The translations under genes and the position numbers were made by a program. A stretch of 64,000 bases of DNA from Spirochaetota bacterium (GTDB lineage: Bacteria > Spirochaetota > UBA12135 > COTS27), in NCBI GenBank assembly GCA_965249715.1, contig CBDFMP010000047.1, forward strand, positions 128,362 through 192,361. Direction: 5' to 3'. Each line of letters starts with the position of its first letter. Within the stretch, counting starts at the first letter, position 1. The notes under the pieces were generated by a model, which saw only the letters and a list, made by a program, of their open reading frames with translations, was not told where the DNA came from and did no database searches. Positions 70 through 36,036 of this stretch are shown here, in pieces.

Positions 70-1554
70 TTATGGTTTAAGGCCGCCCATCAGGATGTAC
101 TTTGACTGCAAATACTCATTAATGCCTTCCTGTCCGCCTTCACTGCCCATGCCGGATTGTTTATGACCGCCAAATGGGGCATTCTCATAGCTGACAATGC
201 CTTCGTTGATGCCCACAATGCCCGCTTCTAGCTGCTCTGCTACGCGCCAGCTACGACTTATATCTTTGCTGAAAAAATAGGCAGCTAAGCCATATTCAGT
301 ATGATTGGCTGCCCGCAGCACCTCGGCTTCAGTAGCGAATTTGCTGATGCCGCCGATTGGCCCAAAGGTTTCTTCATGGTTGAGCAGTGCATCGGCACTA
401 ACGTCTCTTAATACGGTTGGTTCGTAAAACGTTTGTCCAAGTGCGTGTGCCTTGCCGCCGGTCATCACTTTTGCGCCTTTGCTCACAGCATCTGTGACAT
501 GACTGGCTGCCTTTTCCATTGACGCCCGATTGATGAGCGGACCTATCTGCGCACCTTCTGTAAAACCATCAGCAACTTTAAAGGCACTCACCTGTGCTGT
601 CAATTTCTTAACAAAAGCATCATAAATGCCCTCTTGCACATAAATTCTGTTTGCGCAGATACAGGTCTGACCGCTATTGCGATATTTACACATAGCGGCT
701 CCTTGTACTGCAGCATCTAGGTCTGCATCGTCAAAAACAATAAATGGCGCATTGCCGCCCAGTTCCAACGAGAGCTTCTTCATGCCTTCCGCTGATTGGC
801 GCATAAGAATTTTTCCCACACGCGTGGAGCCGGTTAGTGAAATCTTTTTCACTACAGGGGATTCGCAGAAAACTTTGCCAATAGCAGGCGCGTCACCAAA
901 GATTAACTGAATGACGCCGCCAAGCCCATTGGCAGCTGAGAAACCCACTTCTTCAGCCAGCTTGACCAGCGCAATAGCAGTATAAGGAGTCAGCTCGGAT
1001 GGTTTGATGACCATTGGACAGCCTACGGCAAGTGCGGGAGCGAGCTTGCGTGTAATCATTGCTGCTGGAAAGTTCCATGGAGTAATGGCAGCCGTCACGC
1101 CAACGGGTTGGCGAATGACCAATACACGTGTCTGATTATTCTGTTGTGGAACTTGCCTGCCATACGTACGTCTGCATTCTTCAGCGTACCAACGCACAAA
1201 GTTAGCAGCGTAACGGAGCTCGGTGTGTGCTTCTGTGAGCGGTTTCCCGTTTTCAGCCGTTAAAATTGCCGCAAGATCTTCAATATTTGTTAAGATCCGC
1301 TCATACCATAACATGAGCATATTCGCGCGCTGCAATGCCGTGTGCCCCGCCCAACGTGGAAAAACTTCTGCTGCATTTTTAACTGCTTGCGTGGCTTCTT
1401 CATGGCTCATGAACGGCAGTGTGCCAATAACTTCTCCTGTTGCCGGGTTGCTGACATCGGTAGTCTTAGTGCTGTTGCTGCCTACCCAGCTGCCGCCAAT
1501 AAAGCCTTGGTTGCCAATGAGGGTTTTATTTTGAATTTCTACTGGATAATTCAT
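70..1554 (-). CDS. gabD: NAD(P)+-dependent succinate-semialdehyde / aldehyde dehydrogenase
   Basis: 494-aa ORF with ALDH-family catalytic motifs LELGGNAP (general-base Glu) and RNSGQTCICANR (nucleophile Cys). The N-terminal FIGGSWVGS...NPATGEVIG resembles GabD-type enzymes. Confidence 0.8.
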   Translation of the reverse strand: MNYPVEIQNKTLIGNQGFIGGSWVGSNSTKTTDVSNPATGEVIGTLPFMSHEEATQAVKNAAEVFPRWAGHTALQRANMLMLWYERILTNIEDLAAILTAENGKPLTEAHTELRYAANFVRWYAEECRRTYGRQVPQQNNQTRVLVIRQPVGVTAAITPWNFPAAMITRKLAPALAVGCPMVIKPSELTPYTAIALVKLAEEVGFSAANGLGGVIQLIFGDAPAIGKVFCESPVVKKISLTGSTRVGKILMRQSAEGMKKLSLELGGNAPFIVFDDADLDAAVQGAAMCKYRNSGQTCICANRIYVQEGIYDAFVKKLTAQVSAFKVADGFTEGAQIGPLINRASMEKAASHVTDAVSKGAKVMTGGKAHALGQTFYEPTVLRDVSADALLNHEETFGPIGGISKFATEAEVLRAANHTEYGLAAYFFSKDISRSWRVAEQLEAGIVGINEGIVSYENAPFGGHKQSGMGSEGGQEGINEYLQSKYILMGGLKP

Positions 1555-1982
1555 TGTTTAGCTCCGCGTATTTATTGCAAATTTTAATTTCGTACCTATA
1601 AAACATGGAGCTGCCAAAATCTGAAAATAACCATGGCTGAACCAAGATACTCTAACATAGTATAACTTAGCTTAGCCAATTCAGGAGGACTTATGTTTGC
1701 TAAAAGCTGAATGAAGTGAGGATTGATTGAATAAAATTTTACTAATGTTGGACAGTGGGGACGGAAATAGGCAGAACTTCCTTTGTTTTTGAAGGAATTA
1801 CTGTAAAAAAAAAGCTATTTTTTACACAAATGATAAATTTCACCCATTTAGGGCGTATTGGGTGTTATAATTAACCAATCAGTGGAGGTAAATACCTTCT
1901 TCTCCGTGTCATAAACATCGGAGTGGTGGCGTTTTAACTTTAATATAATCTGAGTACTTTTTGTATATTTGGAGATCGCTAA

Positions 1983-2825
1983 ATGAGAATTAATCATAAT
2001 ATATCTGCTATTAACTCAACACGAGTGTTGAATGCCCGTGATTTGGATATTAGTAAGGGGTTTGCACGTGTGTCATCGGGACAGCGTATTAATACAGCTG
2101 GTGATGATGCTGCTGCATTTGCAGTGTCAGAAAAATTGCGTACGCAGATTAGTTCCTTGGTATCAGCTGGAAAGAACACAAATGATGCTATTTCATTTAT
2201 TCAAACGACTGAGGGATACTTGCAAGAAGCGCAGAATCTTCTGGTTAGAATTAAAGAATTGGCAATTCAAGCTGGTAACGGTATTTATTCAAGTGGGGAT
2301 CGTGTCCTCATTCAAAAGGAAGTTAGCCAATTAGTCGCTGAAATTGATAGAATTTCATCGTTTGCTGAGTTCAATGGTCAGAAGATGCTCGACGGTCGTT
2401 TTGCCCGCGGTGGCGCTGAAAGTGTGCCGGTAGCATCACTATACTTTCATGTTGGCCCGGATGTTGACCAAACTATTCGCGCTTTTATTGCCACATTTAA
2501 TTCACAGGCGCTTGGTTTGGAGAATGTCAGTATTTCTTCGCCTTCAAAGGCGAATCAGGCAATTGCTTCTATTGATGAAGCTATTTCTCGCATTAATGAC
2601 CAACGTACAGACCTTGGTGCTTATCAAAACAGACTGGACAGTGTTTTGTCCACTACTAATGTCACGATTGAGAATTTTGTTGCTGCTGAAGGTAAAATTC
2701 GTGATACAAATATAGCGCAGGAAGTGACCGAGCTGTCTAAGAATTTGTTGGTTAATCAAGCTAATATAGCAATGCTTGCACAGGCGAATGCAAACGCACA
2801 AGGTATTTTGCGAATCTTAGGCTAA
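1983..2825 (+). CDS. flaB: Flagellin, short FlaB-type core flagellin
   Basis: 280 aa. N-terminal MRINHNISA...SSGQRINTAGDDAAAFAVSEKLRTQ and C-terminal DLGAYQNRLD...NIAMLAQANANAQGILRIL form the flagellin D0/D1 helices. There is no D2/D3 insert. The central GRFARG...LYFHVGPDVDQ resembles spirochaetal FlaB. GGAG lies about 9 nt upstream of the ATG. Confidence 0.9.
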   Translation: MRINHNISAINSTRVLNARDLDISKGFARVSSGQRINTAGDDAAAFAVSEKLRTQISSLVSAGKNTNDAISFIQTTEGYLQEAQNLLVRIKELAIQAGNGIYSSGDRVLIQKEVSQLVAEIDRISSFAEFNGQKMLDGRFARGGAESVPVASLYFHVGPDVDQTIRAFIATFNSQALGLENVSISSPSKANQAIASIDEAISRINDQRTDLGAYQNRLDSVLSTTNVTIENFVAAEGKIRDTNIAQEVTELSKNLLVNQANIAMLAQANANAQGILRILG

Positions 2826-2848
2826 GGTTTAATTTTCTGAAAGTCTCG

Positions 2849-2876
2849 CGCGATGATGTTTGAAGACATCGTCGCG
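2849..2876 (+). terminator. Possible intrinsic terminator hairpin after flagellin gene
   Basis: An 11-bp stem (cgcgatgatgt / acatcgtcgcg, one G-U pair) with 6-nt loop ttgaag lies 24 nt after the stop. Only a weak, displaced U-run (attttgt) follows. Confidence 0.35.
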
Positions 2877-3445
2877 GTGCTTGCAGATTTTGTAGAAGTT
2901 GACGGTTGGCTGAAGCTTAGTCTTCAAGCCCGCTCTTAACTTTTCATTTTGTCCATGTTGGAGATGATGTTGATCATCTCATGATGGATTTTTCTTAAAG
3001 CTTGGAATTTCCGAGTGCATGGGGATTCGGGGAAGGTTTTCTCTTGCACTTGGTTTTTTGGGTTTATCACTTTTTATAGAATCCTAATGCTGGATGTCAG
3101 CTGAGCTTGCCTGCAGTAATAATGCTGTCAGCTGGTTGTTTTTCTTGTTTGACTAAGTTAAAGTTTTTGTCACAATGCAATGCTTTGTTATCAATGAACA
3201 ATCATCTTGTTTTTGCCAGCTTAGTTGTGTTTTTTATATAAAAAAACGATACTAAACTAGAAGATTTTCGTTTAATTTCTATAAGTCTGGTTGACCAATA
3301 AAGTTTGGTATTGATTTTTAGGTTTTATTGAGTGGTCGGTTGTTTTTCATTTTATAATTGATCATCGCTTAGGTGTGCCGTGGCATTAAATTGCTCAGCT
3401 GGCAGTAAGTTTTAAATTTCGGTGTGTAATAAACAGTAGCAGCAT

Positions 3446-5479
3446 ATGGATAAAAAAGATAAAGAACAGGAAGAGTTTTTAAAAGAAATCGAGAAGAAGT
3501 TGCATGGGCAGAATTCGCCCAATGGCTCTGAAAAGCCGCCTTTTTCGCGTAATCCTAAAAAGCAACAGGGGCAAGCGTGGAATCGTTTCTCTTATTTTCT
3601 TATCTTTCTACTGGTGATCTTTACATTTCTGGCATTGGACAAACGTCGCACGAAGGATGACCCTACACAAATATCATATTCACAGTTTATGAATGATGTG
3701 GGGGCGGGAGACATTAAAGAGGTATTGATCGTTGAGAATCTCAGTATCATTGAATTTTCTAAGGATGGTGTTGCTTATACCACGCGTATTCCTTATACAG
3801 ATATTAATCTTGTTGAGAAACTATTGGCTGGTCAGGTGGTCATTCATTCTGAGACACGGGAACAATCTAGATTATTACTGATTTTTTTACAATGGCTTCC
3901 ATGGATTGTATTGATGGTCTTTTTTTGGTTTATTATCTCGCGGCAGTTGCGCGGACGCGGCAGTGAGGCCTTTAGTTTTGGCAAAAGTAAGGCACAAATG
4001 ATCTCCAGCCATGACATTAAAGAACGCTTTGATGATGTGAAAGGATGTCAGGAAGCTATTGATGACTTAAAAGATATTGTTGCTTTTTTGCGTAATCCGC
4101 GTCAGTTCAGTACCTTGGGAGCACGTACCCCTAAGGGCGTGTTATTGGTGGGGTTGCCGGGGACGGGCAAAACATTGCTTGCGAAAGCAGTTGCCGGTGA
4201 ATCTAATGTTCCGTTTTTCTCTATTTCCGGTTCTGATTTTGTCGAAATGTTTGTGGGGGTGGGTGCTTCGCGTGTGCGCAGCTTGTTTGAGAATGGCAAG
4301 AAACATTCACCCTGTATTATCTTCATTGATGAAATTGATGCTGTTGGGCGCGCGCGCGGCGCTGGTTATGGCGGCGGGCATGACGAGCGCGAACAGACAC
4401 TTAATCAGCTCTTGGTGGAAATGGACGGGTTTGCCACTGGAGAAGGCATTATATTAATGGCAGCAACGAATCGTCCGGATGTTTTAGATAAAGCACTTTT
4501 GCGTCCAGGACGTTTTGATCGTCAGGTGGTGGTGGAAGTACCGGACATGCTGGGACGTGAAGGCATTTTAGCAGTACATGCCAAAAAGATTAAGTTAAGC
4601 CGTGATGTTAAATTGAATCGTATTGCGCGTTCGACGGCGGGCATGACGGGTGCTGACCTTGCCAATGTTATCAATGAAGCGGCGCTCATTGCCGCTAAAA
4701 ATAATAAACGTTATGTGGAGGTTACAGATCTGGATAAGGCCAAGGATAAAGTCCTCTTGGGTTCAGAACGCCGCTCTATGTTCATTTCCCCGCAGGAGAA
4801 ATTGAATACGGCTTATCATGAAGCAGGGCATGCATTGGTAAGCTTGCTCAGTCCCAATGCCAATGATCTGGATAAGGTGACCATTATTCCGCGCGGGCGT
4901 GCCTTGGGCATTACGCACTTTCTGCCCAAGGACGGCAAACATACCATGAATAAAAAAGCTCTGGAGGCTGAGTTGCGTGTGCTTTACGGTGGACGCGTGG
5001 CAGAAGAACTGATTTTCAAAGATGTTACGAATGGAGCGATGAATGACATTGAGCGCGCCACAGAAATTGCCAAATCGATGGTTTGTGAGTGGGGGCTAAG
5101 CCGACTGGGACCTATTGCCTTTAGCGAAAAGAAAACATCGCTTTATTTGCCAAGTAATGAGTACGGTGCAACGGCTTCTGTGCATTCTGAGGAAGTCACT
5201 AAGAAAATTGATCTTGAAATTAAGCGCATTTTAGATACCGCGTATGCAGAAACAAAGGCCTTGCTCAAAAAGTATAATAAGCAGCTGCGGCAGCTTGCGG
5301 AGCTGTTATTGGAAAAAGAGACGGTAGGTATGGATGAACTGCGCGTCTTATTGAAATTTAAGGCTGCTAAAATAATTCCCGCTAGTCCTGAAGGAACGAA
5401 GATACGTTCACGCAAAGGTTCTAAGAGCGAGAAGGGCAAGGAACTCAAATCCGGACGGGTGGCGCTAAATCCTGCTTAG
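3446..5479 (+). CDS. ftsH: ATP-dependent zinc metalloprotease FtsH
   Basis: 677 aa with two N-terminal TM segments, Walker [18 protein letters not shown], Walker [13 protein letters not shown] region [20 protein letters not shown] and zinc motif HEAGHAL. Confidence 0.95.
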
Positions 5480-6638: not shown

Positions 6639-7349
6639 GTGACAGCACTTCAGACGCGACTGAACGCGTTAAAATCGCGTGTGGCGGCTGCATGTGTGAG
6701 CGCCGGGCGTGCACCAACCGCTGCCAGCTTAGTGGTCGCCACAAAGTATGCCAAGCCTGCGGCAATCTGTGAACTCTTAGCTGCAGGCCCGCTGATTATT
6801 GGCGAGAGTCGTGTTCAAGACGCCATTCCTAAAGCAAAACTGCTAGCAGCTGCCAACACCCAGTCAAATTTTGATTTGCATTTTATCGGGCATTTGCAGA
6901 CGAATAAATTGGCAGCATTGCTCCCGTGGGTGAGCATGTTGCATTCACTTGATAGTTTGAAGCTGGCACACGCACTGGCGCGAAAATTGACTGTATTGGA
7001 GAAGACGTTACCTGTGCTTCTGCAGGTTAACGTCACAGGCGAGGCAAGTAAATTTGGCTTCACTCCAGCTGAACTCAGACAGGCACTGGAAGAACTGAGC
7101 CGCTTACCGCAATTGTCCATTAGTGGACTGATGACCATGGCACCTTTACAGGCTTCAGCAGGTGACTTGAACGCTTGTTTTACGGAAGTAGCACAACTGA
7201 AGAGTGACTTGGCAGCATTAGCCCAGAAATTCGCTTATGCCAATATGAATTTTAAAGAGCTTTCTATGGGCATGTCTCAGGACTTTGAAGCAGCAATTGC
7301 AGCGGGTGCAACATTTGTGCGGATCGGTCGTGCAGTATTCACTCCCTGA
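6639..7349 (+). CDS. yggS: PLP-binding protein YggS/PROSC family
   Basis: 236 aa with a GTG start. It carries VVATKYAKP (PLP-lysine context), IGHLQTNK and the C-terminal LSMGMSQDFEAAIAAGATFVRIGRAVF typical of YggS. Confidence 0.8.
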   Translation: MTALQTRLNALKSRVAAACVSAGRAPTAASLVVATKYAKPAAICELLAAGPLIIGESRVQDAIPKAKLLAAANTQSNFDLHFIGHLQTNKLAALLPWVSMLHSLDSLKLAHALARKLTVLEKTLPVLLQVNVTGEASKFGFTPAELRQALEELSRLPQLSISGLMTMAPLQASAGDLNACFTEVAQLKSDLAALAQKFAYANMNFKELSMGMSQDFEAAIAAGATFVRIGRAVFTP

Positions 7350-7370
7350 TGGAAGTGAACACTGCACGCG

Positions 7371-7937
7371 TTATGATTTATGCATGGATGTAGATTTTGC
7401 TGTATTTTCTAACAGTTCTAAGTAATCGGGGTGCATGTGCTGAATGTTGGCACCGCCAATGAGCTTGCTGTTGTTGATGAGACTTTTAATGATGACTAGG
7501 ATGCGTTCACGATCTTCCTGACTGGAATCACGCCAGAGATTGATGAGCTCCTTTTCCTTATAAGAAATGGCAATTGCCTTATTTTCTTTCTGTCCGTCTT
7601 TTTTTAGCTCAGTTTCGTAATGATGTTTAAGTTTTTGCAGATCCAGATACTTCCTAATATCTACTTGTGCATCCGATTTAAGCGAGTGATAGTCTTCCAA
7701 TAGTGAAGCTGACTCGTTGTCCAGAGTTTCGTTTTTCAGAAACATTGGACCTTCGCCTTCTAAGAGCCATGTATGGCTGAGTGAGAATTTGGCTTGCAGC
7801 GACAATGCTACTGTGATTGGAATACGCGAGCCTTTAAGGTAGCGCGTAATATTAGAATGAGAAATCCCCAATCTTTTGGAAATTTCAATTTGTTTAACGC
7901 CCAAGGTGGTAATGAATAGTTTGAGTCGCTCTGTCAT
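7371..7937 (-). CDS. XRE-family helix-turn-helix transcriptional regulator with uncharacterised C-terminal domain
   Basis: 188 aa. The N-terminal HTH is LGVKQIEISKRLGISHSNITRYLKG, followed by WLLEGEGPMF (a phage-repressor-like motif). The gene is flanked upstream by a 380-bp AT-rich spacer. Confidence 0.65.
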   Translation of the reverse strand: MTERLKLFITTLGVKQIEISKRLGISHSNITRYLKGSRIPITVALSLQAKFSLSHTWLLEGEGPMFLKNETLDNESASLLEDYHSLKSDAQVDIRKYLDLQKLKHHYETELKKDGQKENKAIAISYKEKELINLWRDSSQEDRERILVIIKSLINNSKLIGGANIQHMHPDYLELLENTAKSTSMHKS

Positions 7938-23939: not shown

Positions 23940-25478
23940 GTGCTTCATTTTATGAAAACTTATGCCGTTAAGGCGTATCTTTCTGCACAGGCACTTCCGC
24001 AAACAGCAGAGCTGGCTTACGCGCTGGCAGGGGTGGCGGCGGCACAGGCGCCGCTGGATGCAGCGGCAGTGGCGATGGTGCAAAATCGTATCATTGACAA
24101 TGCTGCAGTAGCGCTTGCAGCCATTAATGATCGTCCTGTTGCGGTTGCGCGCAGCATGGCACTGCGGCATCCTCCGCTAGCTACGCAGGGCGCGGCTATT
24201 ATGGGCGTGCCTGCGCATACCCTGGTTTCAGCCGAGTGGGCTGCTTGGGCTAACGGTACTGCTGTGCGGCAGTTGGATTATCACGATACATTTCTAGCGC
24301 ATGATTATTCGCATCCCGCCGATAACATCCCGCCGCTGCTTGCCGTGGCGCAAAATTTGCGGGAACGTGCCTGCACCGGCACTCAGCTCATTCGCGCAAT
24401 TCTCAGTGCTTATGAAATTCAGGTGGCACTGGTAAAAGGTATTTCACTTCATGCCCATGCTATTGATCACATTGCCCACTTAGGGGTCAGTGCGGCGGCG
24501 GGTTTGGGGACTTTGCTGCAGCTCCCGCAACCGCTTATTTATCAGGCACTTCAGCAGGCGCTGCATGTCACCATCACCACACGCCAGTCGCGCAAAGGAT
24601 TAATTTCATCATGGAAAGCTTACGCGCCCGCCCATGCAGGCAAGCTGGCGATTGAAGCTGTTGATCGTTGTGCACGCGGTGAAGGCGCTCCCAGTCCCAT
24701 TTATGAAGGCGAGGATAGTGTGATCGCCAAAATCCTCGGCGGCATGGACGCCACCTACACCATAATGCTGCCTGCAGCCGATGAGCCGCTTAAAGGCATT
24801 CTTGAAACGTACACAAAGGCGCATTCGGCAGAATATCAATCGCAAGCCATTATTGATCTGGCATTTGAAATTCGTACTGCCGGTATTGATTTAACGGCTA
24901 TTAAAGAGCTTGTTATTCATACTTCCCACCATACGCATAAGGTTATTGGCACGGGCTCGGGCGATCCTCAGAAATTTGACCCCAAAGCCTCACGTGAAAC
25001 CTTGGATCATTCGCTCATGTATATTTTTGCGGTAGCATTGGAGGACGGCAGCTGGCATCACGTTGATTCCTATACTCCCGAACGCGCAGCGCGTTCCAGT
25101 ACACTTGCCTTATGGCGAAAGATCAGTACACGCGAGGATGCACACTGGACAAAACTTTATCATGCCACCGACTCCGCTAAAAAAGCTTTTGGCGCGCGCG
25201 TGGAACTGAAATTTACTGATGGCAACACACGGTTTTTCGCGAAAACAGTAGCAGACGCCCATCCAAATGGCAAAGCTCCGTTTACACGTGACGATTATAT
25301 TCGTAAGTTTAAAATGCTCAGTGCTGAGCTGATCACAGCAGCGGAGCAAGAGCGTTTTATCGAAACGGTCTTGCGGCTGGAGCAACTGAGTGGAACGGAG
25401 TTATTGGAACTGAATGTGCCCATTCCAGCAGCCAAGCTGCGTTCAGCGCCGCCCGTCAAACAGAGTATTTTTGGCTGA
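23940..25478 (+). CDS. prpD: 2-methylcitrate dehydratase (MmgE/PrpD family)
   Basis: 512 aa with PrpD-like length and layout, e.g. YDYHDTFLAHDYSHPADNI-type segment (LDYHDTFLAHDYSHPADNIP), directly upstream of prpB and prpC. The true start may be the ATG at 23952. Confidence 0.8.
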   Translation: MLHFMKTYAVKAYLSAQALPQTAELAYALAGVAAAQAPLDAAAVAMVQNRIIDNAAVALAAINDRPVAVARSMALRHPPLATQGAAIMGVPAHTLVSAEWAAWANGTAVRQLDYHDTFLAHDYSHPADNIPPLLAVAQNLRERACTGTQLIRAILSAYEIQVALVKGISLHAHAIDHIAHLGVSAAAGLGTLLQLPQPLIYQALQQALHVTITTRQSRKGLISSWKAYAPAHAGKLAIEAVDRCARGEGAPSPIYEGEDSVIAKILGGMDATYTIMLPAADEPLKGILETYTKAHSAEYQSQAIIDLAFEIRTAGIDLTAIKELVIHTSHHTHKVIGTGSGDPQKFDPKASRETLDHSLMYIFAVALEDGSWHHVDSYTPERAARSSTLALWRKISTREDAHWTKLYHATDSAKKAFGARVELKFTDGNTRFFAKTVADAHPNGKAPFTRDDYIRKFKMLSAELITAAEQERFIETVLRLEQLSGTELLELNVPIPAAKLRSAPPVKQSIFG

Positions 25479-25524
25479 GCGGACAGGGTGAGCTGCCCAG
25501 AGTGTTAATGCAGAGGAACAGGTT

Positions 25525-26469
25525 ATGTTATTCAATCCTATTGAACCTGCTGCCAAACGGTTAGCACTCAGAAAACAACTAACCGATAAAAAACTACTGC
25601 GTTTTCCCGGTGCTTATGCGCCGCTTATTGCTATGGCTATTGAGCGCATTGGCTTTGAGGGCGTTTATATTTCTGGCGCGGTGATGGCCAATGACTTGGG
25701 GTACCCGGACATTGGGCTTGTGGGTTTGGAGCAGCTGGCGCTGCGCAGCGCGCAGATTGCACGCGTGACGCGGCTGCCGGTTTTGGCGGATATTGATACC
25801 GGTTTTGGCGAAAGTATGAATGTTGCGCGTACGGTGCAGCTGATGGAAGAAGCAGGTGTAGCGGGTGTGCATTTGGAAGATCAGACACATCCCAAACGCT
25901 GCGGGCATTTGGATAATAAGGAATTGGTCAGTATTGAAACAATGCAGCGTAAAATTGCCGCGGGGTTGCGTGCCAAACGCGATCAGAATTTTCTTTTGAT
26001 GATCCGCAGCGATGCACGTAATGTGGAAGGCTTGGACGGAATGCTGAAACGTGTGAAAGCTTATACAGCTGCCGGTGCCGATGCCATCTTTGCAGAAGCA
26101 CTGCAGAATGTGGATGAATTTGCCGCGGTGCGCGCTGCTACTGAGCTGCCACTACTTGCCAATATGACCGAATTTGGCAAGAGTCCGCTTCTGCAGGTCG
26201 CTGAACTGGAACGCTTGGGCTACAATATGGTAATCTACCCTGTGACCACACAACGGCTGGCGGTAAAGAGCGTTGAACAAGGATTGCAAACACTTTTTAC
26301 ACAAGGCTCGCAAAAAAATATTCTGGAGCTCATGCAGACACGGAAAGAACTTTATGAGTTGGTGCGTTATCAGGATTACGATGTGTTTGATAAGAGTATT
26401 TATAACATTGGCATTGACACCTTGGAGCGTAAACGTCAGACGGATGTAGCCGCTTCTGAAAAAATATGA
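25525..26469 (+). CDS. prpB: Methylisocitrate lyase
   Basis: 314 aa. It has the ICL/PEP-mutase family motif GVHLEDQTHPKRCGHLDNKELV and DTGFG. Confidence 0.88.
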   Translation: MLFNPIEPAAKRLALRKQLTDKKLLRFPGAYAPLIAMAIERIGFEGVYISGAVMANDLGYPDIGLVGLEQLALRSAQIARVTRLPVLADIDTGFGESMNVARTVQLMEEAGVAGVHLEDQTHPKRCGHLDNKELVSIETMQRKIAAGLRAKRDQNFLLMIRSDARNVEGLDGMLKRVKAYTAAGADAIFAEALQNVDEFAAVRAATELPLLANMTEFGKSPLLQVAELERLGYNMVIYPVTTQRLAVKSVEQGLQTLFTQGSQKNILELMQTRKELYELVRYQDYDVFDKSIYNIGIDTLERKRQTDVAASEKI

Positions 26470-26493
26470 TGATATGAGGCAAGGCAGTAGGGC

Positions 26494-27636
26494 ATGACAG
26501 CAGAACTTGATATAAAAAAAGGTCTTCAGGGGGTAATAGCCGATACCAGCGCGGTATCACAAGTGATCCCTGAAACCAGTACCTTAACCTATCGCGGTTA
26601 CACAGTAGGCAATTTATGCGAGCAGACTTCATTTGAGGAAGTGTGTTATCTTTTGTTGTACAATGAATTGCCGACAGCGTCCCAGCTTAAGCTTTTTATG
26701 GAAAAGGAACGTGCGGCACGTGAGCTGCCGCACGGGCTGATGAACATGCTGGAGCAATTGCCGCGCACCTGTCATCCGATGGATAGCGTACGCAGTTTTG
26801 TAAGTTTATATGCGCTTTACGATGAAACGCTGAGCGCAGACATGCACGCCTTCACTGAGGACATGGTCATCCGCCTCTTAGGCGCAACACCTGTTTTTGT
26901 AGCGTGGGATTTGGCGCGTCGTAGTGGCCGGCAGTTCACCGCAGCCAATGCAGAACTTTCATTCAGCGCTAATTTTTTTAACATGGCTTTTGGTAGTTTA
27001 CCGGCAGCAGAAGTGGTGCGCGCGTTTGATGTTTCTCTCATTCTTTATGCTGAACACAGTTTCAATGCTTCCACCTTTACCAGTCGTGTGATCACCAGTA
27101 CGCAATCCGATTATTACAGTGCGATAACAGGTGCCATTGCTGCCTTGAAGGGACCCTTGCATGGTGGTGCCAATGAGGCAGTGATGAAAATGTTTCAGAC
27201 AATTTTACAGACCGTGGGGCTTGGTGGCGCTGAACAATGGATTCGTGACGCGTTGGCGTGTAAAACCCGGATTATGGGGTTTGGTCATCGCGTGTACCGC
27301 ACGGGAGATTCGCGTGTGCCTACGATGGAGCAGCATTTTTTTAACGTTGCACAGGTGAAGCAGGATACTGAGCTGGTTAAACTTTATAAGACAGTTGCAG
27401 ACGTGGTTGTGGCGGAGAAGGGCATTCATCCTAATTTAGATTATCCCTCAGCGCCTGCGTATTACCTGATGGGTTTTATGATCGATTTTTTCACACCTAT
27501 TTTTGTGATGAGCCGCATTGCCGGTTGGTCAGCGCATATTATAGAACAGCGTGCCGCCAATCGCCTGATCCGCCCCATTTGCGCCTACACGGGTCCTGCG
27601 CGCAGAGCGGTTGTTCCCATAGCTAAGCGTTCCTGA
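26494..27636 (+). CDS. prpC: 2-methylcitrate synthase / citrate synthase family
   Basis: 380 aa with citrate-synthase signatures LHGGANEAV and GFGHRVYRTGDSR. Operon context is with prpD and prpB. Confidence 0.85.
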   Translation: MTAELDIKKGLQGVIADTSAVSQVIPETSTLTYRGYTVGNLCEQTSFEEVCYLLLYNELPTASQLKLFMEKERAARELPHGLMNMLEQLPRTCHPMDSVRSFVSLYALYDETLSADMHAFTEDMVIRLLGATPVFVAWDLARRSGRQFTAANAELSFSANFFNMAFGSLPAAEVVRAFDVSLILYAEHSFNASTFTSRVITSTQSDYYSAITGAIAALKGPLHGGANEAVMKMFQTILQTVGLGGAEQWIRDALACKTRIMGFGHRVYRTGDSRVPTMEQHFFNVAQVKQDTELVKLYKTVADVVVAEKGIHPNLDYPSAPAYYLMGFMIDFFTPIFVMSRIAGWSAHIIEQRAANRLIRPICAYTGPARRAVVPIAKRS

Positions 27637-27766
27637 CGATGGCTGCGAACAACGCCCGCGGCACTCAGGCTGATTGTTTCAATTTTTTTAACGAAGCTTG
27701 CATGAAGGTGCCTCATGGTAAGCTCACATAAGCCGTTTTTGCTTGTGGGGATGGTAGAATTAATGT

Positions 27767-28684
27767 ATGGCGGAATGGACTAAGCGAGTATTGTATCAGA
27801 TAAAAAAATACCGTTGGTGGATTTGTTATGGGGGTATTTATATTTTTGCGATTTTTCTTATAAGTCTAGGGGTACATTGGATAGCTTTAAGATTTTCTGA
27901 AGAACAAAGAGCTACAATTTATTTTTTTGCTAATATACTTTTACCGATAATCGCTTCTTTAGTCACAATTGTTTTTACTGCACGCAGAGAATATAATTTA
28001 AAAAAATCTCATGATGAAGAGATTAAGGGGCGGAAAAAAAAACTTGAGGAAGAGACTGAGGCTTGGGAAAAGACACTTGAAGAACTTAGTATTAGTACTG
28101 TGAACTCATATCTTAGGAAGATTGTAGGAAACTTACCCCCACAAGGGGAACAAGGTAATGAATTTGGAGCTAATGAAAGAATCTGTATCTATAAGTATGT
28201 CCCTAAAAAGAGTCCTGAAAAAGATATTTTTAAGTGTGTGGGGCGTCATTCGGGTAATGGAGCTTTTCTTAAACTTGTTGATAGAGATTATTCTCGCAGC
28301 CAAGGATTTATCTCAAACATATATGATCGAAAGAATAGGGATTGGGAAGAAGATAAAGCTTTTCCACATATTTCAGATGAAAGCAGGAGTCGCATAAGAC
28401 AATGGCAAGACGGAGAGGCGGATAACAGGACAGAAGATGACATTGTTGCGCTTGACAGCTATCAGGAATATATTAAAGAAAAATATCGCATTCCGCAGGA
28501 TGTTTATAAAAGCTTTCGTATGAATGCTGAGCATATGATTGCTAAGCAATTATGGGATTCTGACAAGAAAATACTTGTTGGTGTGATTGTATTTGAAAGT
28601 TGCCACAAAAATTTTCTTTCATTAGAAAGTATACAAAATGCTTGTACGGAAAATGATATACAATATATAATTAATTTGATGTAA
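27767..28684 (+). CDS. Two-TM membrane protein with unrecognised ~190-aa soluble C-terminal domain (candidate toxin/effector partner of the Panacea protein)
   Basis: 305 aa. TM1 is WWICYGGIYIFAIFLISLGVHWI and TM2 is IYFFANILLPIIASLVTIVF. A charged coiled-coil linker (KKSHDEEIKGRKKKLEEETEAWEKTLEEL) follows, then a C-terminal domain ending KILVGVIVFES...IQYIINL. The gene is markedly AT-rich and contains an A9 run at 28034-28042. Confidence 0.6.
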   Translation: MAEWTKRVLYQIKKYRWWICYGGIYIFAIFLISLGVHWIALRFSEEQRATIYFFANILLPIIASLVTIVFTARREYNLKKSHDEEIKGRKKKLEEETEAWEKTLEELSISTVNSYLRKIVGNLPPQGEQGNEFGANERICIYKYVPKKSPEKDIFKCVGRHSGNGAFLKLVDRDYSRSQGFISNIYDRKNRDWEEDKAFPHISDESRSRIRQWQDGEADNRTEDDIVALDSYQEYIKEKYRIPQDVYKSFRMNAEHMIAKQLWDSDKKILVGVIVFESCHKNFLSLESIQNACTENDIQYIINLM

Positions 28685-28722
28685 GCGATTACTCAGTTTG
28701 TATCAGTTAATAGCTGAAGGTA

Positions 28723-29271
28723 ATGATAACAATGGTAACAGTTACAAAAAGCCCAACGATTCTTATAGATGTTATAGCCTATATTTGTGAAAAGTATCCC
28801 TATGCGGAGGATCTTTCCAAAGCAAAGCTAACAAAAATAATTTACTTGGCAGATTGGAAGTCAGCTAAGGATAGAGGCAGGCAGATTACGGATATAAAAT
28901 GGCACTATAATCATTATGGGCCTTATGTGGATGAGGTGGTGGATGTGATCACTGAGCACCAGGAGCTCTTTAAGCTTGGCCGCGGTACGAATGTTTATGG
29001 CGGTGTGCGTGAGCTTGTGGGACTAAAAAAAGCGGCGAATTACGATCGCAAATATAAACAATTAAAATCGCAAGAAGACAAGGATGATTTGTGTGAAGTT
29101 ATTACTAAGAGTGTAAATTTACATTGGATTAAATTTATTAAGTTAGTCTATTCATCGTACCCAATTAGAGTTTCTGAGCGTTATGCCCATCTTGACTTGC
29201 CAGCTTTAGCTCAAAAATATAAAGAGCTTAAAAGTAAGCCGCATTTTGAGCTTATTGCTGATAACATTTAA
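28723..29271 (+). CDS. Panacea (DUF4065 / SocA-like) domain protein, candidate antitoxin
   Basis: 182 aa, starting 38 nt after the upstream ORF. LSKAKLTKIIYLADWKSA...IKWHYNHYGPYVDEVVDVI matches the Panacea core (KLxKLLYxAxxW ... W..GPV). The C-terminal LSQEDKDDLCEVITKSVNL...LVYSSYPI resembles the second conserved block. Confidence 0.7.
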   Translation: MITMVTVTKSPTILIDVIAYICEKYPYAEDLSKAKLTKIIYLADWKSAKDRGRQITDIKWHYNHYGPYVDEVVDVITEHQELFKLGRGTNVYGGVRELVGLKKAANYDRKYKQLKSQEDKDDLCEVITKSVNLHWIKFIKLVYSSYPIRVSERYAHLDLPALAQKYKELKSKPHFELIADNI

Positions 29272-29332
29272 CCGCTCAGCTGTAATGTTATAGGGTTGTT
29301 CGCTTGTATGAAGCTCAAGTTCACTAAGCACT

Positions 29333-29374
29333 GCGTGGAGCGAAGCTTGTTATGAAACAAAGCCCACTCCACGC
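29333..29374. terminator. Inverted repeat between convergent genes (possible bidirectional terminator)
   Basis: gcgtggag (29333-29340) and ctccacgc (29367-29374) form a perfect 8-bp stem with a 26-nt loop. There is no clear U-tract. Confidence 0.2.
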
Positions 29375-29419
29375 CGCTTAGCCGCACTCAATCAGAGTTA
29401 TTGTTCAGTGCCCAAACAC

Positions 29420-29545
29420 TTAGCGAAACATCCGTGAAATTTGATGCGCTAGTTGTTTGATGGCATACTCAACATAATCATCCTGCTCGATGCGTTTTTT
29501 TAGCTTGGCGATCCTTTTGGGATCGATCTTGACAGCTATTTTCAT
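29420..29545 (-). CDS. Unlisted 41-aa ORF, possible ribbon-helix-helix-like small protein
   Basis: My own translation of the minus strand gives MKIAVKIDPKRIAKLKKRIEQDDYVEYAIKQLAHQISRMFR-stop. AAGGA lies about 10 nt upstream. The pattern is a beta-strand followed by two amphipathic helices. It is below the 60-aa track threshold. Confidence 0.3.
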   Translation of the reverse strand: MKIAVKIDPKRIAKLKKRIEQDDYVEYAIKQLAHQISRMFR

Positions 29546-29679
29546 GGTTCACGTCCTTATGGTTGTCACAACGTCCTTGTTGATGGAGACTAAGAGAAAA
29601 ACGAATGTTTGCGCAATATTTCACCCCGCGCACTAAGGCTTCATTATAGAACTTCATGAGCTTGTCAGTTATGGGCTGC

Positions 29680-30153
29680 TTAAAGGTAAACGGGTTCATT
29701 GTGAGTGAAGATCTGCTTGAAATGTTTCAGGGCAATTTGTGGCTGCTGTGCTGCAGCACAGCGCTCAGCAATGGGCGTAAAGAGTATTAAATCATAACGG
29801 ATAAAATAAGCTTGCAGCTCTGGATGTTCGCTTAAATATTGTTCAGTAGCCTGCATCATGCGTTTCTGTTGCGATGCCATAAAAAGCGTACTGGGTGCCT
29901 GCTCAGGACCAAGTCGCCGATATTTGACTTCAATAAATATTAGTAATTGGTAGGGGGCAACAGCAATTAGATCAATTTCTTTATGGCGTGCATAGTAATT
30001 TCTCGCAATGACCAAGTACCCATGGAGGTGAAGATATTCATTGGCAAGTTGTTCATAATGGCGGCCAAGCGATTTTCTTTTGTTTGGCGTTGTCGTGGAA
30101 GGGGCTACGCTGTTGTGCCTTGCAGGATCGCTGAAGTTTGCGGCAGCGGACAT
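29680..30153 (-). CDS. yraN: YraN family (UPF0102) endonuclease-like protein
   Basis: YEQLANEYLHLHGYLVIARNYYARHKEIDLIAVAP...LIFIEVKYRR matches the YraN core (GEIDLIA...FVEVKxR). The track ORF extends to 30282, but the ATG at 30153 has AAGG upstream and avoids overlap with the upstream gene. Confidence 0.7.
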   Translation of the reverse strand: MSAAANFSDPARHNSVAPSTTTPNKRKSLGRHYEQLANEYLHLHGYLVIARNYYARHKEIDLIAVAPYQLLIFIEVKYRRLGPEQAPSTLFMASQQKRMMQATEQYLSEHPELQAYFIRYDLILFTPIAERCAAAQQPQIALKHFKQIFTHNEPVYL

Positions 30154-30214
30154 GAAAAAACCTTGGACAGCGATTACGATGAATGCCACTTGCATGGACA
30201 GGTGGGGATAACTT

Positions 30215-31387
30215 TTAATTGTGTTGCGAAATTTGACTGTAAACGATGCGAATGAGTTTATAACGCAGTTGGGGTTTGTCAAGCAATGCTATAACTTTTA
30301 AGGTTTCTTCCGCCAGATTAATGGTCTCAGTTCTGCTGCTGTTACCGCGTTTGGGTTGTGTGATCAACTCTATAATAGGACGCTTGGGGTAGCGGTACGT
30401 TGCCTTGATGCTAATGCCTATTTGTTGATTATCAAGCATGAGCACTTCGCCCGGTGGAAAAAAAGAATTGACAGAAAAAAAATTTTTAAGGATAGTTTCA
30501 TCGTAACGTTCTTTATGTTTTAAGAGTAAGAGCATAGCATTGGTGGGCAGGGCAGGGGGGCGAAATGATTTCAGAAATTCCGATGTCAGGTAAACATATT
30601 CGTGCGCCAATGTCAGTATTTGTGCCACGGGCGTAATTGTCTGGGTGCCTATGCCCAATGCCCCGCTTTTGTCTAAATATTCATGGTGTGTGAGTACAAG
30701 ATAAATGAGCTCTTTGGAGGCTTTCATTTCTTTTTGCAGGATTTGACAACTGAGTTTGACGTGAAAAGCCAGCTGCTCAGTTAAGTCCAATGGGAAATTA
30801 TATTTGTCTTTTGAATATGCGGAAGCCTGCTCCATGACCGTTTTTTCTGATTTGCGCTGGAAGCCAATGTCTGCGAAACAGGCAGCATAAAAAAGCTGTT
30901 TCAGCTCATCCTGCTTCAAGTTCATACGCGTTCCCAACATGATGGCATTAAATGCGGTTAAGAGCGCAACACCCTCATAAGTACTGGAATTCACATCAGT
31001 ATTCACATAAAAGGAAAAATAATTATTGGGGTTTTGATAAAAATTCAAGAGTTTTGTGAAGTACTTGTCATAATTCGGCATATTCAGCTTATAACTAAGC
31101 TGGACAGCTTCATAAAATTCTTTCAACTCGGCAAGGAATTCGCGCGTGAAATCACGAAACCCCTTGATTTGCTCATTGAAATAAAGGCTGAACTTTTTTT
31201 CACTTTGTGTATAGCTTTTGATATAAAAATCTTCTAACTTCCATTTTTTGAGTAGTTGCAGATCTTCTGTTGTTGGCGTCATCCCCTTCTCTAAGAAGAT
31301 CAAATCCTTGTCAATAAACAAATTCTCTGTTACCTGTTCGCCGGGGTTGAGTGCACTCAGCTTGATCGTATCATTTTTGGGAGACAT
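30215..31387 (-). CDS. HD-GYP-like domain protein, probably degenerate
   Basis: 390 aa. LTHHEYLDKSGALGIG resembles the HHExxDGSGYP block but lacks GYP. The expected HDIGK is replaced by FADIGF. Confidence 0.45.
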   Translation of the reverse strand: MSPKNDTIKLSALNPGEQVTENLFIDKDLIFLEKGMTPTTEDLQLLKKWKLEDFYIKSYTQSEKKFSLYFNEQIKGFRDFTREFLAELKEFYEAVQLSYKLNMPNYDKYFTKLLNFYQNPNNYFSFYVNTDVNSSTYEGVALLTAFNAIMLGTRMNLKQDELKQLFYAACFADIGFQRKSEKTVMEQASAYSKDKYNFPLDLTEQLAFHVKLSCQILQKEMKASKELIYLVLTHHEYLDKSGALGIGTQTITPVAQILTLAHEYVYLTSEFLKSFRPPALPTNAMLLLLKHKERYDETILKNFFSVNSFFPPGEVLMLDNQQIGISIKATYRYPKRPIIELITQPKRGNSSRTETINLAEETLKVIALLDKPQLRYKLIRIVYSQISQHN

Positions 31388-31548
31388 TGTTTGTTGTTTC
31401 TCTCAATTTATTTGTGGTGCTGAGTTTCACTTGTTATTTGACGGAAATATTATGATCCCGTATGCAACAAGTAGTTTTTCATACACGCCCGCCCATACAA
31501 GCCCCCGCCAATAGGTAAGGTACTGCGTGTAAAGGACTGCGATATAGT

Positions 31549-32028
31549 TCAGGCAGGTTGTTTTGTGCAAAACTTGGACTCGGTAGGGTTAAGCTTCTTC
31601 ACGGTTGTCAGGACATGGCGTGTATGGTGAGTGGGATGATCGGAAATAAGCTGCCATCCTTGACGCGTTGTTTGATTGATAATGACAGGTCCCAGCAAGT
31701 TAACGGTGGGGTCGGCTTCTTCCTCGCGTTGGGTGACAATAGCAAAGTCATGTGTATAAGGCGAAGGCGCATCACAGCTTAGTGTGTAGTCCTTAAAACA
31801 TTCCTGGGGACGCACTAAGACAAAACAGAGTGTTTCATCGGATAATGCCTGCAGGAAATAAAACAATGAATGCTGAGCAGTTTTAAGCAGCAGGTAATGT
31901 TTGATGTCCTCAAAGCCAAGCAGACCTTGCGGGAAATGGATAATGTCTTCTGGGGTGTAGGCTAGCTTGCCTAGTTTGGCGCTTGTGAGCATGGAGGGGG
32001 TTTGCTGAGAGGTGAGCATAATTATCAA
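31549..32028 (-). CDS. fliW: Flagellar assembly factor FliW
   Basis: YTPEDIIHFPQGLLGFEDIKHYLLL...FYFLQAL...CFVLVRP is typical FliW. The true start is probably the internal Met at 31992 (MLTSAKLGKLAY). Confidence 0.8.
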   Translation of the reverse strand: MIIMLTSQQTPSMLTSAKLGKLAYTPEDIIHFPQGLLGFEDIKHYLLLKTAQHSLFYFLQALSDETLCFVLVRPQECFKDYTLSCDAPSPYTHDFAIVTQREEEADPTVNLLGPVIINQTTRQGWQLISDHPTHHTRHVLTTVKKLNPTESKFCTKQPA

Positions 32029-32091
32029 TAAAGCTGAATAGGATTAATTTTTAAATGGTTGACAAACGGTTTCCTGAAGCTCCAAGTAAGC

Positions 32092-33345
32092 TTAAAGGAA
32101 ATCTAAAAGTGTTGTCTCAAGCAGCCGTGAGGCAGTTTGAAGTGTGATGCGATGGAGATAGTTCCATTCGTTAAAAGCTGTTGCCGCTGTGGCAATATCG
32201 GCATCCTCATTGGCTGAGCGCCGTTCAATGACCGTTTGACGTTCATTTGCAAGCGCTTGTTTGGTTAGCTGAGTGCGTGTGGTGAGTGCTGATAATTTTG
32301 CCTGTCCTTTCACAAGGTTATCCAAGCCGCGTGTGATGCCGCCCAAGTGAAGGCCGCCCAGCTCGCGCAGCTGATTGTCAAGCAGCGCGTCACGCAGGCG
32401 GATCACGCGATCAAAAATAGAACCATCAGTCGCTAAGACATTAGCACTGAGGTTATCGTAAGGGACATTACCGGGGGCATCGGCTTTTAGAAAGCCAAGT
32501 TGTCTGAGGAGGGTTCCGCCCTTCAGATCTTCAAGCGCTATTTTATGCGGATAATTGCTTTCAATGGCCAGTGCCAGCTCCCCACTTGGCAATTCTTGTG
32601 AAAATGCTGTCACTGTGGGAATCTTTGTATTAATGGTTTCGGCGATAATGGCTAAATTATCCCCTGCGTTTAGTTGTACGGTAAAACCGTCAATGCGGAT
32701 AGTGGCGGTTTCGGGATTGATAAAATTGCGGCTGTCACGGCGTGGGATGAGCGTTTCCTGGTCAGCCCAGAAGATCTCACTGCCATTGGCTAAGATGCGT
32801 GCATTGTCATTATCGCCAATCTGCACAATATGCGGGCGATAGTCGCCTTCATAGCTCACATGATTGATCAGCGGGCGTCCCAATTCTGTTTGAAAGGCTG
32901 TTGTTGTTTTGAACGGCGCCACAATGTCCTTAGACCCTGCAAAAAGGTACTTAGCTTCATGCTGACTGTTTGCCAGAGTGACCAGCTGCTTTAGCATTTC
33001 TTCTACCTCTAGGGCAATATTATGGCGATCGCTGCGCGTGAGCGGACCATTGGCTGCTTGCAGCGTCAATTCACGGACGCGGCGCACTACATCGTTTGCG
33101 CTGCTCAGCTGGTCGTGGGCAATGCGTAAACGCGTATTGACTTCCGCTATATTCTCCGTATAACGTTCCAACTGATTCAGGCGAATACGACTGTACAGAC
33201 TGGTAATGGTTTTAAGCGGCGCGTCACTGGGGCGACTGAACTGTTTGCCGGTGATCAGCTGGCGTTGCGTCTTCACAACGCCCTGATTATTGCGCATCAT
33301 GTTGTGAATATTGGATTGTTTGAGCTGCAGGTTGGATATTCTCAT
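32092..33345 (-). CDS. flgL: Flagellar hook-associated protein 3 (FlgL)
   Basis: 417 aa. The flagellin-like N-terminus is MRISNLQ...ITGKQFSRPSDAPL and the C-terminal helix is flagellin-like. It is positioned after flgK. Confidence 0.85.
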   Translation of the reverse strand: MRISNLQLKQSNIHNMMRNNQGVVKTQRQLITGKQFSRPSDAPLKTITSLYSRIRLNQLERYTENIAEVNTRLRIAHDQLSSANDVVRRVRELTLQAANGPLTRSDRHNIALEVEEMLKQLVTLANSQHEAKYLFAGSKDIVAPFKTTTAFQTELGRPLINHVSYEGDYRPHIVQIGDNDNARILANGSEIFWADQETLIPRRDSRNFINPETATIRIDGFTVQLNAGDNLAIIAETINTKIPTVTAFSQELPSGELALAIESNYPHKIALEDLKGGTLLRQLGFLKADAPGNVPYDNLSANVLATDGSIFDRVIRLRDALLDNQLRELGGLHLGGITRGLDNLVKGQAKLSALTTRTQLTKQALANERQTVIERRSANEDADIATAATAFNEWNYLHRITLQTASRLLETTLLDFL

Positions 33346-35667: not shown

Positions 35668-36036
35668 TTAAAATAAACTGTGTTGCTAACTGCGGTTTTT
35701 GTGAGTTTGTAGTTTTACTCCTATCGCTATCGCTTAGGTTTATCTACGAGTCATCCTGAGAATGATAAAGCGACTTTAGTACTTGGTGACCTAATGGCAG
35801 CTTGTTCTAAAATTTACTTAAATTTATAACTGAGTTGTAAGCCATAACACTGCCTAAATAGCCGAAAATTTCATAAAATTTGCATTTTTTTTTTTTTATT
35901 GCCCGATTTTGCATAAATTTTTAAGCTGACAGCTTAACTTCTGATAAAATTTATAAGAAAAATTTATGATGAATTTATTTGTATTGAGATGTTTTGTTTA
36001 TTAAAATTCAGTATTGGCGGTAAGTAGTTTTGTATC

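Follow-up and report, generated by a model that had tools for sequence, protein, structure and literature searches.

The DNA analysed here, a stretch of 64,000 nucleotides from a Spirochaetota bacterium (contig CBDFMP010000047.1; referred to as a whole as the window), carries a two-gene cassette on its forward strand. The first open reading frame (ORF), at 27767-28684, encodes a protein of 305 amino acids (aa), and the second, at 28723/28732-29271, encodes a protein of 182 or 179 aa, depending on the start codon. We find that the cassette is intact and belongs, as a very divergent member, to a known family of PanAT toxin-antitoxin pairs, toxFtsL(D9)/T13, and that it is not a new effector type. 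A first-pass annotation of the same DNA had proposed a PanT/PanA pair with an undescribed effector. The pair stands, but the effector is not undescribed, because the same architecture and gene order were predicted as cluster T13 in 2022 and validated as toxFtsL in 2023.

The validated representative is the Gelidibacter mesophilus pair toxFtsL(D9):PanA (toxin, WP_027127282.1; antitoxin, WP_027127283.1) described by Ernits et al. 2023 (PNAS, PMC10440598). This toxin has 281 aa, is annotated as 'GAF; FtsL; transmembrane', and is neutralised directly by its stand-alone Panacea partner; its helix is predicted to mediate dimerisation (PMC10440598). When expressed in Escherichia coli it is slowly toxic, causing filamentation, delocalisation of FtsZ with loss of divisome assembly, and late lysis, and it neither depolarises nor permeabilises the cells within 10-60 min (PMC10440598). 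The same G. mesophilus toxin is listed, together with Xenorhabdus szentirmaii DSM 16338, in the predicted cluster T13 of Kurata et al. 2022 (PNAS, PMC8832971, Dataset S1). T13 comprises some two dozen members, spread over Firmicutes, Bacteroidetes, Proteobacteria, Actinobacteria and Archaea; every row has the toxin gene before the antitoxin gene (T|A), and the gaps are mostly between -23 and +19 nt, with one row at +79 (PMC8832971). One T13 member is annotated as a GAF domain protein, and a CDD GAF match is given for the Aliidiomarina member (PMC8832971).

The X. szentirmaii locus, which we met as a match to the window PanA, reproduces the geometry of the T13 table exactly (T|A, overlap 8) and has an upstream protein of 332 aa. 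A profile of the window branch (A1) aligns with this X. szentirmaii toxin over the whole GAF-like domain (hhalign probability 92.9%, E = 3.6e-7), and the window toxin itself finds it by BLASTP with an E-value of 3e-5. The X. szentirmaii toxin is also matched by the toxin of locus L006, a member of the central group of the family (BLASTP, 2e-11), and by the Shewanella-type branch (A7; hhalign probability 93.8%), while the window and L006 toxins match each other with a BLASTP E-value of 2e-19. The architecture is that of T13/D9 throughout: N-terminal transmembrane helices, a long α-helix and a C-terminal GAF domain in a protein of ~260-330 aa, encoded in toxin-then-PanA order. As judged from these alignments and this architecture, the assignment of the window protein to T13/D9 is well supported.

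The downstream protein matches the Pfam profile PF13274 (SocA_Panacea) over residues 36-144 with a score of 40.1 bits (gathering score 25.7) and an E-value of 7.6e-10, in agreement with the Panacea (DUF4065) assignment made at first pass. Since it contains no domain besides Panacea, it is a stand-alone PanA. Its database product, P0003, has 179 aa and starts at the ATG at 28732, 11 nt from a GAAGG at 28716-28720, which is a better spacing than that of the ATG at 28723; the PanA gene is accordingly given here as 28732-29271 on the forward strand. The intergenic gap is 47 nt with this start and 38 nt with the earlier one. Relatives of the window PanA are numerous. The nearest, P0004 and P0005, are 62-64% identical to it and 67% identical to each other, and the PanA of L006 is 46% identical. 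PF13274 is carried by all listed PanA homologues except the weakest, P0086. The window and the sister genome form an outlying branch of the family, in which PanA is longer (179-180 aa) and ends in a FELIAD[ND]I tail. As a separate observation, models of DarG in PADLOC (E = 2e-4) and NCBIfam (E = 4e-3) weakly match PanA with their C-terminal part, a hint that the toxin-binding part of DarG is related to Panacea.

The upstream 305-aa protein (27767-28684, forward strand), the toxin, is identical to database protein P0001 and has no family match in Pfam, NCBIfam, PADLOC or PHROG. Kyte-Doolittle windows above 1.6 predict two transmembrane helices at approximately residues 17-39/44 and 48/51-72/73 (27815-27982), both helical in the full-length structure model. 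The first of them is preceded by five lysine and arginine residues and one acidic residue, and the second is followed by nine lysines and arginines. Because of this surplus of positive charge on the outer flanks, the positive-inside rule predicts that both termini are cytoplasmic (N-in/C-in). A charged helical linker follows at approximately residues 73-121 (27983-28129), as part of a helix that is continuous from residue 45 to 121 in the model; it takes the place of the published 'FtsL-like' helix. The length and sequence of the linker differ among family members in an alignment of 24 sequences.

The remainder of the toxin, approximately residues 133-305 (28163-28681, forward strand), forms a GAF-like domain that is predicted to be cytoplasmic. 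An AlphaFold2 model of the domain, built with a 28-sequence alignment, has a pLDDT of 87.6 and a pTM of 0.83. The top Foldseek matches in the PDB are essentially all GAF domains, including 3o5y (a sensor kinase), 4g3w, 1f5m (YKG9), NreA, Nlh1, PDE5/6, phytochromes and fRMsr, with TM-scores of 0.45-0.57 on the target and E-values from 2.5e-3. The window protein has no match to the curated Pfam GAF profiles; the L006 toxin has a sub-threshold match to GAF_2 (E = 0.019). As modelled, the C-terminal domain is a divergent GAF fold. The first-pass annotation had noticed two N-terminal transmembrane helices, a charged linker and a 'faintly GAF-like' terminal strand, and had taken the protein to combine a membrane anchor with a sensor-like domain; hydrophobicity, charge and the structure models agree with it on all of these points.

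Four residues are invariant in the 24-sequence alignment (R138, R160, G180 and E277), and six more are nearly so (Y142, F155, S162, Y175, M252 and S278); position 186 is a tyrosine in the window toxin and a tryptophan in the rest of the family. Conservation across the family is highest in the GAF-like domain and lowest in the transmembrane region and the linker, which suggests that the soluble domain holds the key function, possibly as the docking site for PanA or as a sensor.

A word-indexed search of 5.8 billion proteins with the toxin sequence returned the protein itself and one relative, P0002, with 36% identity. An exhaustive HMMER search with a profile of these two sequences matched 56 cluster representatives of 125-336 aa, mostly 244-336 aa, at E ≤ 1e-3, members of the central group with E-values down to 5.6e-16. 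The motifs ERICIY, GRYS, G.IG.VW, FRMK and AVIVFES are common to the family. P0002 comes from the sister genome; its contig has the same length, 202,120 bp, as that of the PanA paralogues P0004 and P0005, so the genes are presumably on one contig and adjacent. With one detectable toxin homologue for two PanA proteins, the sister genome may contain a more divergent second partner, or one of the PanA proteins may be an orphan.

The gene pair recurs in nine other loci, five reached through PanA (L001-L004 and L009) and four through the toxin (L005-L008), the latter from metagenome-assembled genomes of Alpha-, Gamma- and Deltaproteobacteria and from Paenibacillus. All nine have the same layout, a gene for a protein of 257-332 aa followed by one for a Panacea protein of 152-173 aa, and the two genes usually overlap or abut. 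The PanA-selected loci have an upstream gene of 287-332 aa; the three that were translated share the family motifs, and that of L009 aligns by hhalign. The toxin-selected loci have a PanA gene of 154-173 aa abutting or overlapping downstream in four of four cases. In seven of the nine loci the upstream gene is a confirmed family member by translation, motifs or alignment; the upstream gene of L004 (300 aa, geometry as in L003) was assigned to the family from its size and the absence of a Pfam match. Homologues of the 305-aa protein thus do recur beside Panacea genes, the co-location that the first-pass annotation had asked for. Several of these pairs adjoin other genes of interest. In L005 (region 837-5256), the toxin gene begins at the very end of a type I HsdR gene, overlapping its stop, and a UvrD-like helicase gene comes after the pair; in L006 (region 582-5253), it overlaps in the same way with a gene for a Type ISP restriction-modification enzyme. 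Because of these overlaps, the PanAT pair looks as if it had been appended to restriction-modification operons. In L002 the pair lies beside Vsr and a DNA methylase, and in L003 beside an integrase fragment. A scan of the genome collection with the two-sequence alignment found nothing; the later, broader scan that yielded L005-L008 did not have Gelidibacter among its matches. Scans of viral contigs and of two metagenome sets gave no match, and tblastn searches of plasmid and phage collections found no copy.

The composition of the cassette sets it apart from its surroundings. Its GC content of 0.356 is the lowest among 625 tiles of 1.5 kb, the size of the cassette, in the window (mean 0.462, standard deviation 0.033), and the GC content at third codon positions is 0.26 and 0.36 for the two cassette genes against 0.43-0.51 for neighbouring genes. 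The low-GC patch extends from 27700 to 29300, with 300-nt tiles of 0.30-0.44 compared to ~0.48-0.55 upstream. Based on these contrasts and on the patchy spread of the family across phyla, the cassette was probably acquired horizontally. No integrase gene is present among the genes read across 24000-33000, and a repeat search at the cassette gave short matches alone, none of which bracket it. The locus is therefore as first annotated with respect to its ORF coordinates, the prpC and yraN flanks, the 38-nt gap (counted from 28723), the compositional contrast with the flanks and the lack of an integrase or att repeats, and the proposed horizontal acquisition is supported as the probable origin.

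Several observations weigh against placing the pair in the toxFtsL(D9)/T13 family and against extending the published mechanism to it. The window toxin is a far outlier, with a single relative above 30% identity among the 5.8 billion proteins searched and ~22-28% identity to the remaining family in the 24-sequence alignment, and its GAF-like domain carries an extra insertion of ~25-35 residues. Its membership rests on a transitive link through X. szentirmaii together with the shared architecture, and not on an alignment with the G. mesophilus toxin. The direct comparison of the window branch with the Shewanella-type branch is in register and below significance (hhalign, E = 0.015), so that the link between these two depends on the Xenorhabdus intermediate. 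The gap of 38-47 nt lacks the overlap typical of family pairs, and a promoter and terminator scan at the cassette found no consensus. Finally, the 305-aa protein has no Pfam match to FtsL or DivIC at E ≤ 1. A comparison of the family profile with E. coli FtsL gave an hhalign probability of 0.2%, a weak test given the single-sequence target and the coiled-coil region, and the Xenorhabdus member has a faint DivIC match (E = 0.046). Because the window toxin has no detectable similarity to FtsL or DivIC, the division-block mechanism may not carry over to this pair.

Taking these points into account, we consider it likely that the cassette is a type II toxin-antitoxin operon of the toxFtsL(D9)/T13-PanA family, obtained by horizontal transfer, and that it works as follows. 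The pair of N-terminal helices would anchor the toxin in the inner membrane so that its N- and C-terminus are both cytoplasmic, and the toxin would probably dimerise through its long helix, as predicted for the published member. PanA, encoded just downstream, would bind the toxin directly and so prevent its action. Once freed by the loss or triggering of PanA, the toxin would most likely block divisome assembly, leading to filamentation and later lysis without depolarisation. For the window pair, we infer direct neutralisation, dimerisation and the division block by analogy with G. mesophilus. The gene structure, the Panacea domain, the arrangement of transmembrane helices, long helix and GAF-like domain, the homology to a T13 member and the strict toxin-then-PanA linkage in other genomes rest on the present analysis itself. 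The assays of membrane potential and ATP leakage suggested at first pass imply a mode of action that the published toxFtsL phenotype argues against.

The most serious alternative, which overlaps with this explanation and which we regard as possible but rather unlikely, is that the pair serves mainly in abortive-infection phage defence, with PanA sensing infection and freeing or activating the membrane toxin to halt division or lyse the cell. Such a role has to be kept in mind because the pair is often found beside restriction-modification genes in other genomes (L005, L006 and L002), and the integrase fragment in L003 points the same way; moreover, Ernits et al. 2023 (PMC10440598) favour a sensory role for Panacea. 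However, the toxin matches no PADLOC model, the weak DarG-type match of PanA being the only one for the pair, and the neighbours in the window (prpDBC, yraN and flagellar genes) are housekeeping genes. The phage and plasmid collections are without a copy, and Ernits et al. 2023 (PMC10440598) report no phage assay for toxFtsL:PanA. It is less probable still, and in our view improbable, that the 305-aa protein is a pore-forming, depolarising or holin-like toxin whose GAF-like domain is a regulatory handle held by PanA, much as antiholin RI holds holin T. The two transmembrane helices, the existence of validated membrane PanTs and the late lysis of cultures expressing the published member (PMC10440598) would fit this idea, and so would the likeness of the domain model (residues 120-305, 28124-28681) to T4 holin T in its soluble domain (6px4/6pxe) and to BFVD entries for class III/T holins. 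The fold scores against holin T are, however, no better than those against ordinary GAF domains, the domain is predicted to be cytoplasmic here and is periplasmic in holin T, and the transmembrane region is the least conserved part of the family and the soluble domain the most. The published member, furthermore, causes neither depolarisation nor permeabilisation of E. coli within 10-60 min. A related speculation, to which we give an equally low probability, is that the invariant polar residues of the central sheet of the GAF-like domain (R138, R160 and E277/S278, with Y142, S162 and Y175) form a pocket for a small molecule or phage cue. Members of the family would in that case be membrane effectors gated by a ligand, in parallel to T-type holins. 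PanA would play the part of an antiholin and hold the sensor domain until the signal arrives, and the working heart of the toxin would be its GAF domain and not the 'FtsL-like' helix.

Two further readings concern the state of the cassette itself, and we consider both of them very improbable. It might be a decaying remnant without present function, given that it is a lone, very divergent copy with a longer gap than most family pairs. Yet both reading frames are intact, and the toxin retains four of four invariant residues along with most of those that are nearly invariant. In the sister pair, P0002 and P0004/P0005 are 36% and 62-64% identical to the window toxin and PanA, respectively, and have the same domains; this conservation argues for purifying selection. 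The toxin gene might also be phase-variable, by slippage in a run of nine adenines (A9) at 28034-28042 that encodes part of the linker (GRKKKLEE). This run is exact and lies within the coding region, and a slip of +1 or -1 would give a shortened product of 93 or 111 aa that retains the transmembrane helices only. But a run of at least nine A or T occurs in 5.3% of mononucleotide shuffles of the toxin gene, and elsewhere in the window there are a second A9 (1805-1813) and a run of thirteen T (35885-35897). The A9 encodes lysines in the poorly conserved linker, in a region without counterpart in the closest homologue, P0002. Of the first-pass proposal that the gene is switched on and off at this tract, the run itself is confirmed at 28034-28042, and the switching has no support beyond it.

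The cassette is preceded by prpD, prpB and prpC, the last identified as a citrate synthase (E = 6e-117), and is followed on the reverse strand by a UPF0102/YraN-type gene, an HD-domain gene, fliW and flgL. The YraN/UPF0102 ORF (29680-30282, reverse strand) has 200 aa and matches the family at residues 76-167, after ~75 additional residues, and it shares 68 nt with the end of the HD-domain gene; because of the extension and the overlap, its true start may be internal. A 41-aa ORF on the reverse strand (MKIAVKIDPKRIAKLKKRIEQDDYVEYAIKQLAHQISRMFR, 29420-29545) faintly matches the FlgM anti-sigma-28 profile in its C-terminal part (E = 0.062); located next to the yraN/HD/fliW/flgL genes, this ORF could represent an flgM that is short or has decayed. 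AT-rich tiles (GC < 0.40) also occur at 1500-2800 and 6800-7500, where they contain a 280-aa flagellin gene and YggS-like and helix-turn-helix genes. We considered whether the other AT-rich patches of the window are islands similar to the cassette and rejected this, as they hold the flagellin gene and housekeeping genes.

As a discovery, the cassette is of little value, because T13 was predicted in 2022 and toxFtsL was validated in 2023. Its use lies elsewhere. As a divergent branch, it pinpoints the truly invariant residues of toxFtsL/T13, namely R138, R160, G180 and E277, and it suggests that the FtsL-like signal is not constant across the family. The further pairs attached to restriction-modification genes bear on the question of whether PanAT modules are phage defence systems. 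What interest remains concerns the role of the conserved GAF-like domain and its likeness in fold to T-type holins.

Among known systems, the closest is the G. mesophilus toxFtsL:PanA pair, compared here by its published description. Both consist of a toxin of ~280-300 aa with transmembrane helices, a long helix and a GAF domain, and of a stand-alone Panacea protein encoded directly downstream. They differ in that the window genes are separated by 38-47 nt and the G. mesophilus genes overlap by 4 nt, and in that the window toxin shows no detectable FtsL/DivIC-like signal, has the insertion of ~25-35 residues in its GAF domain, and is ~22-28% identical to the family members with which it was aligned. 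The two-gene layout is likewise that of the T13 cluster, in whose list the window organism and the sister genome are absent. The small membrane PanTs (T3 of E. coli STEC O31, T12/D11 of Bartonella and the Helicobacter PanT) belong to the same class of membrane-associated toxins neutralised by PanA. They are, however, short peptides with a C-terminal transmembrane helix that depolarise or permeabilise the membrane, whereas the window toxin has N-terminal transmembrane helices and a conserved soluble domain of ~170 aa, and belongs to a non-depolarising family. The resemblance to T4 holin T with its antiholin RI (6px4/6pxe) and to class III holins is at the level of the fold: a transmembrane anchor is joined to a GAF-like α/β domain, and a small partner blocks the protein. 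Holin T, which has no similarity in sequence to the window toxin, differs in having a single transmembrane helix and in the periplasmic location of its domain, and the published toxFtsL phenotype is not holin-like. CbtA/CbeA-type systems, finally, are similar in that the toxin acts on cell division, and not on translation or the membrane, if the published toxFtsL member is taken as the guide; their folds are unrelated to those of the window pair, and CbtA is a soluble protein that binds FtsZ and MreB.

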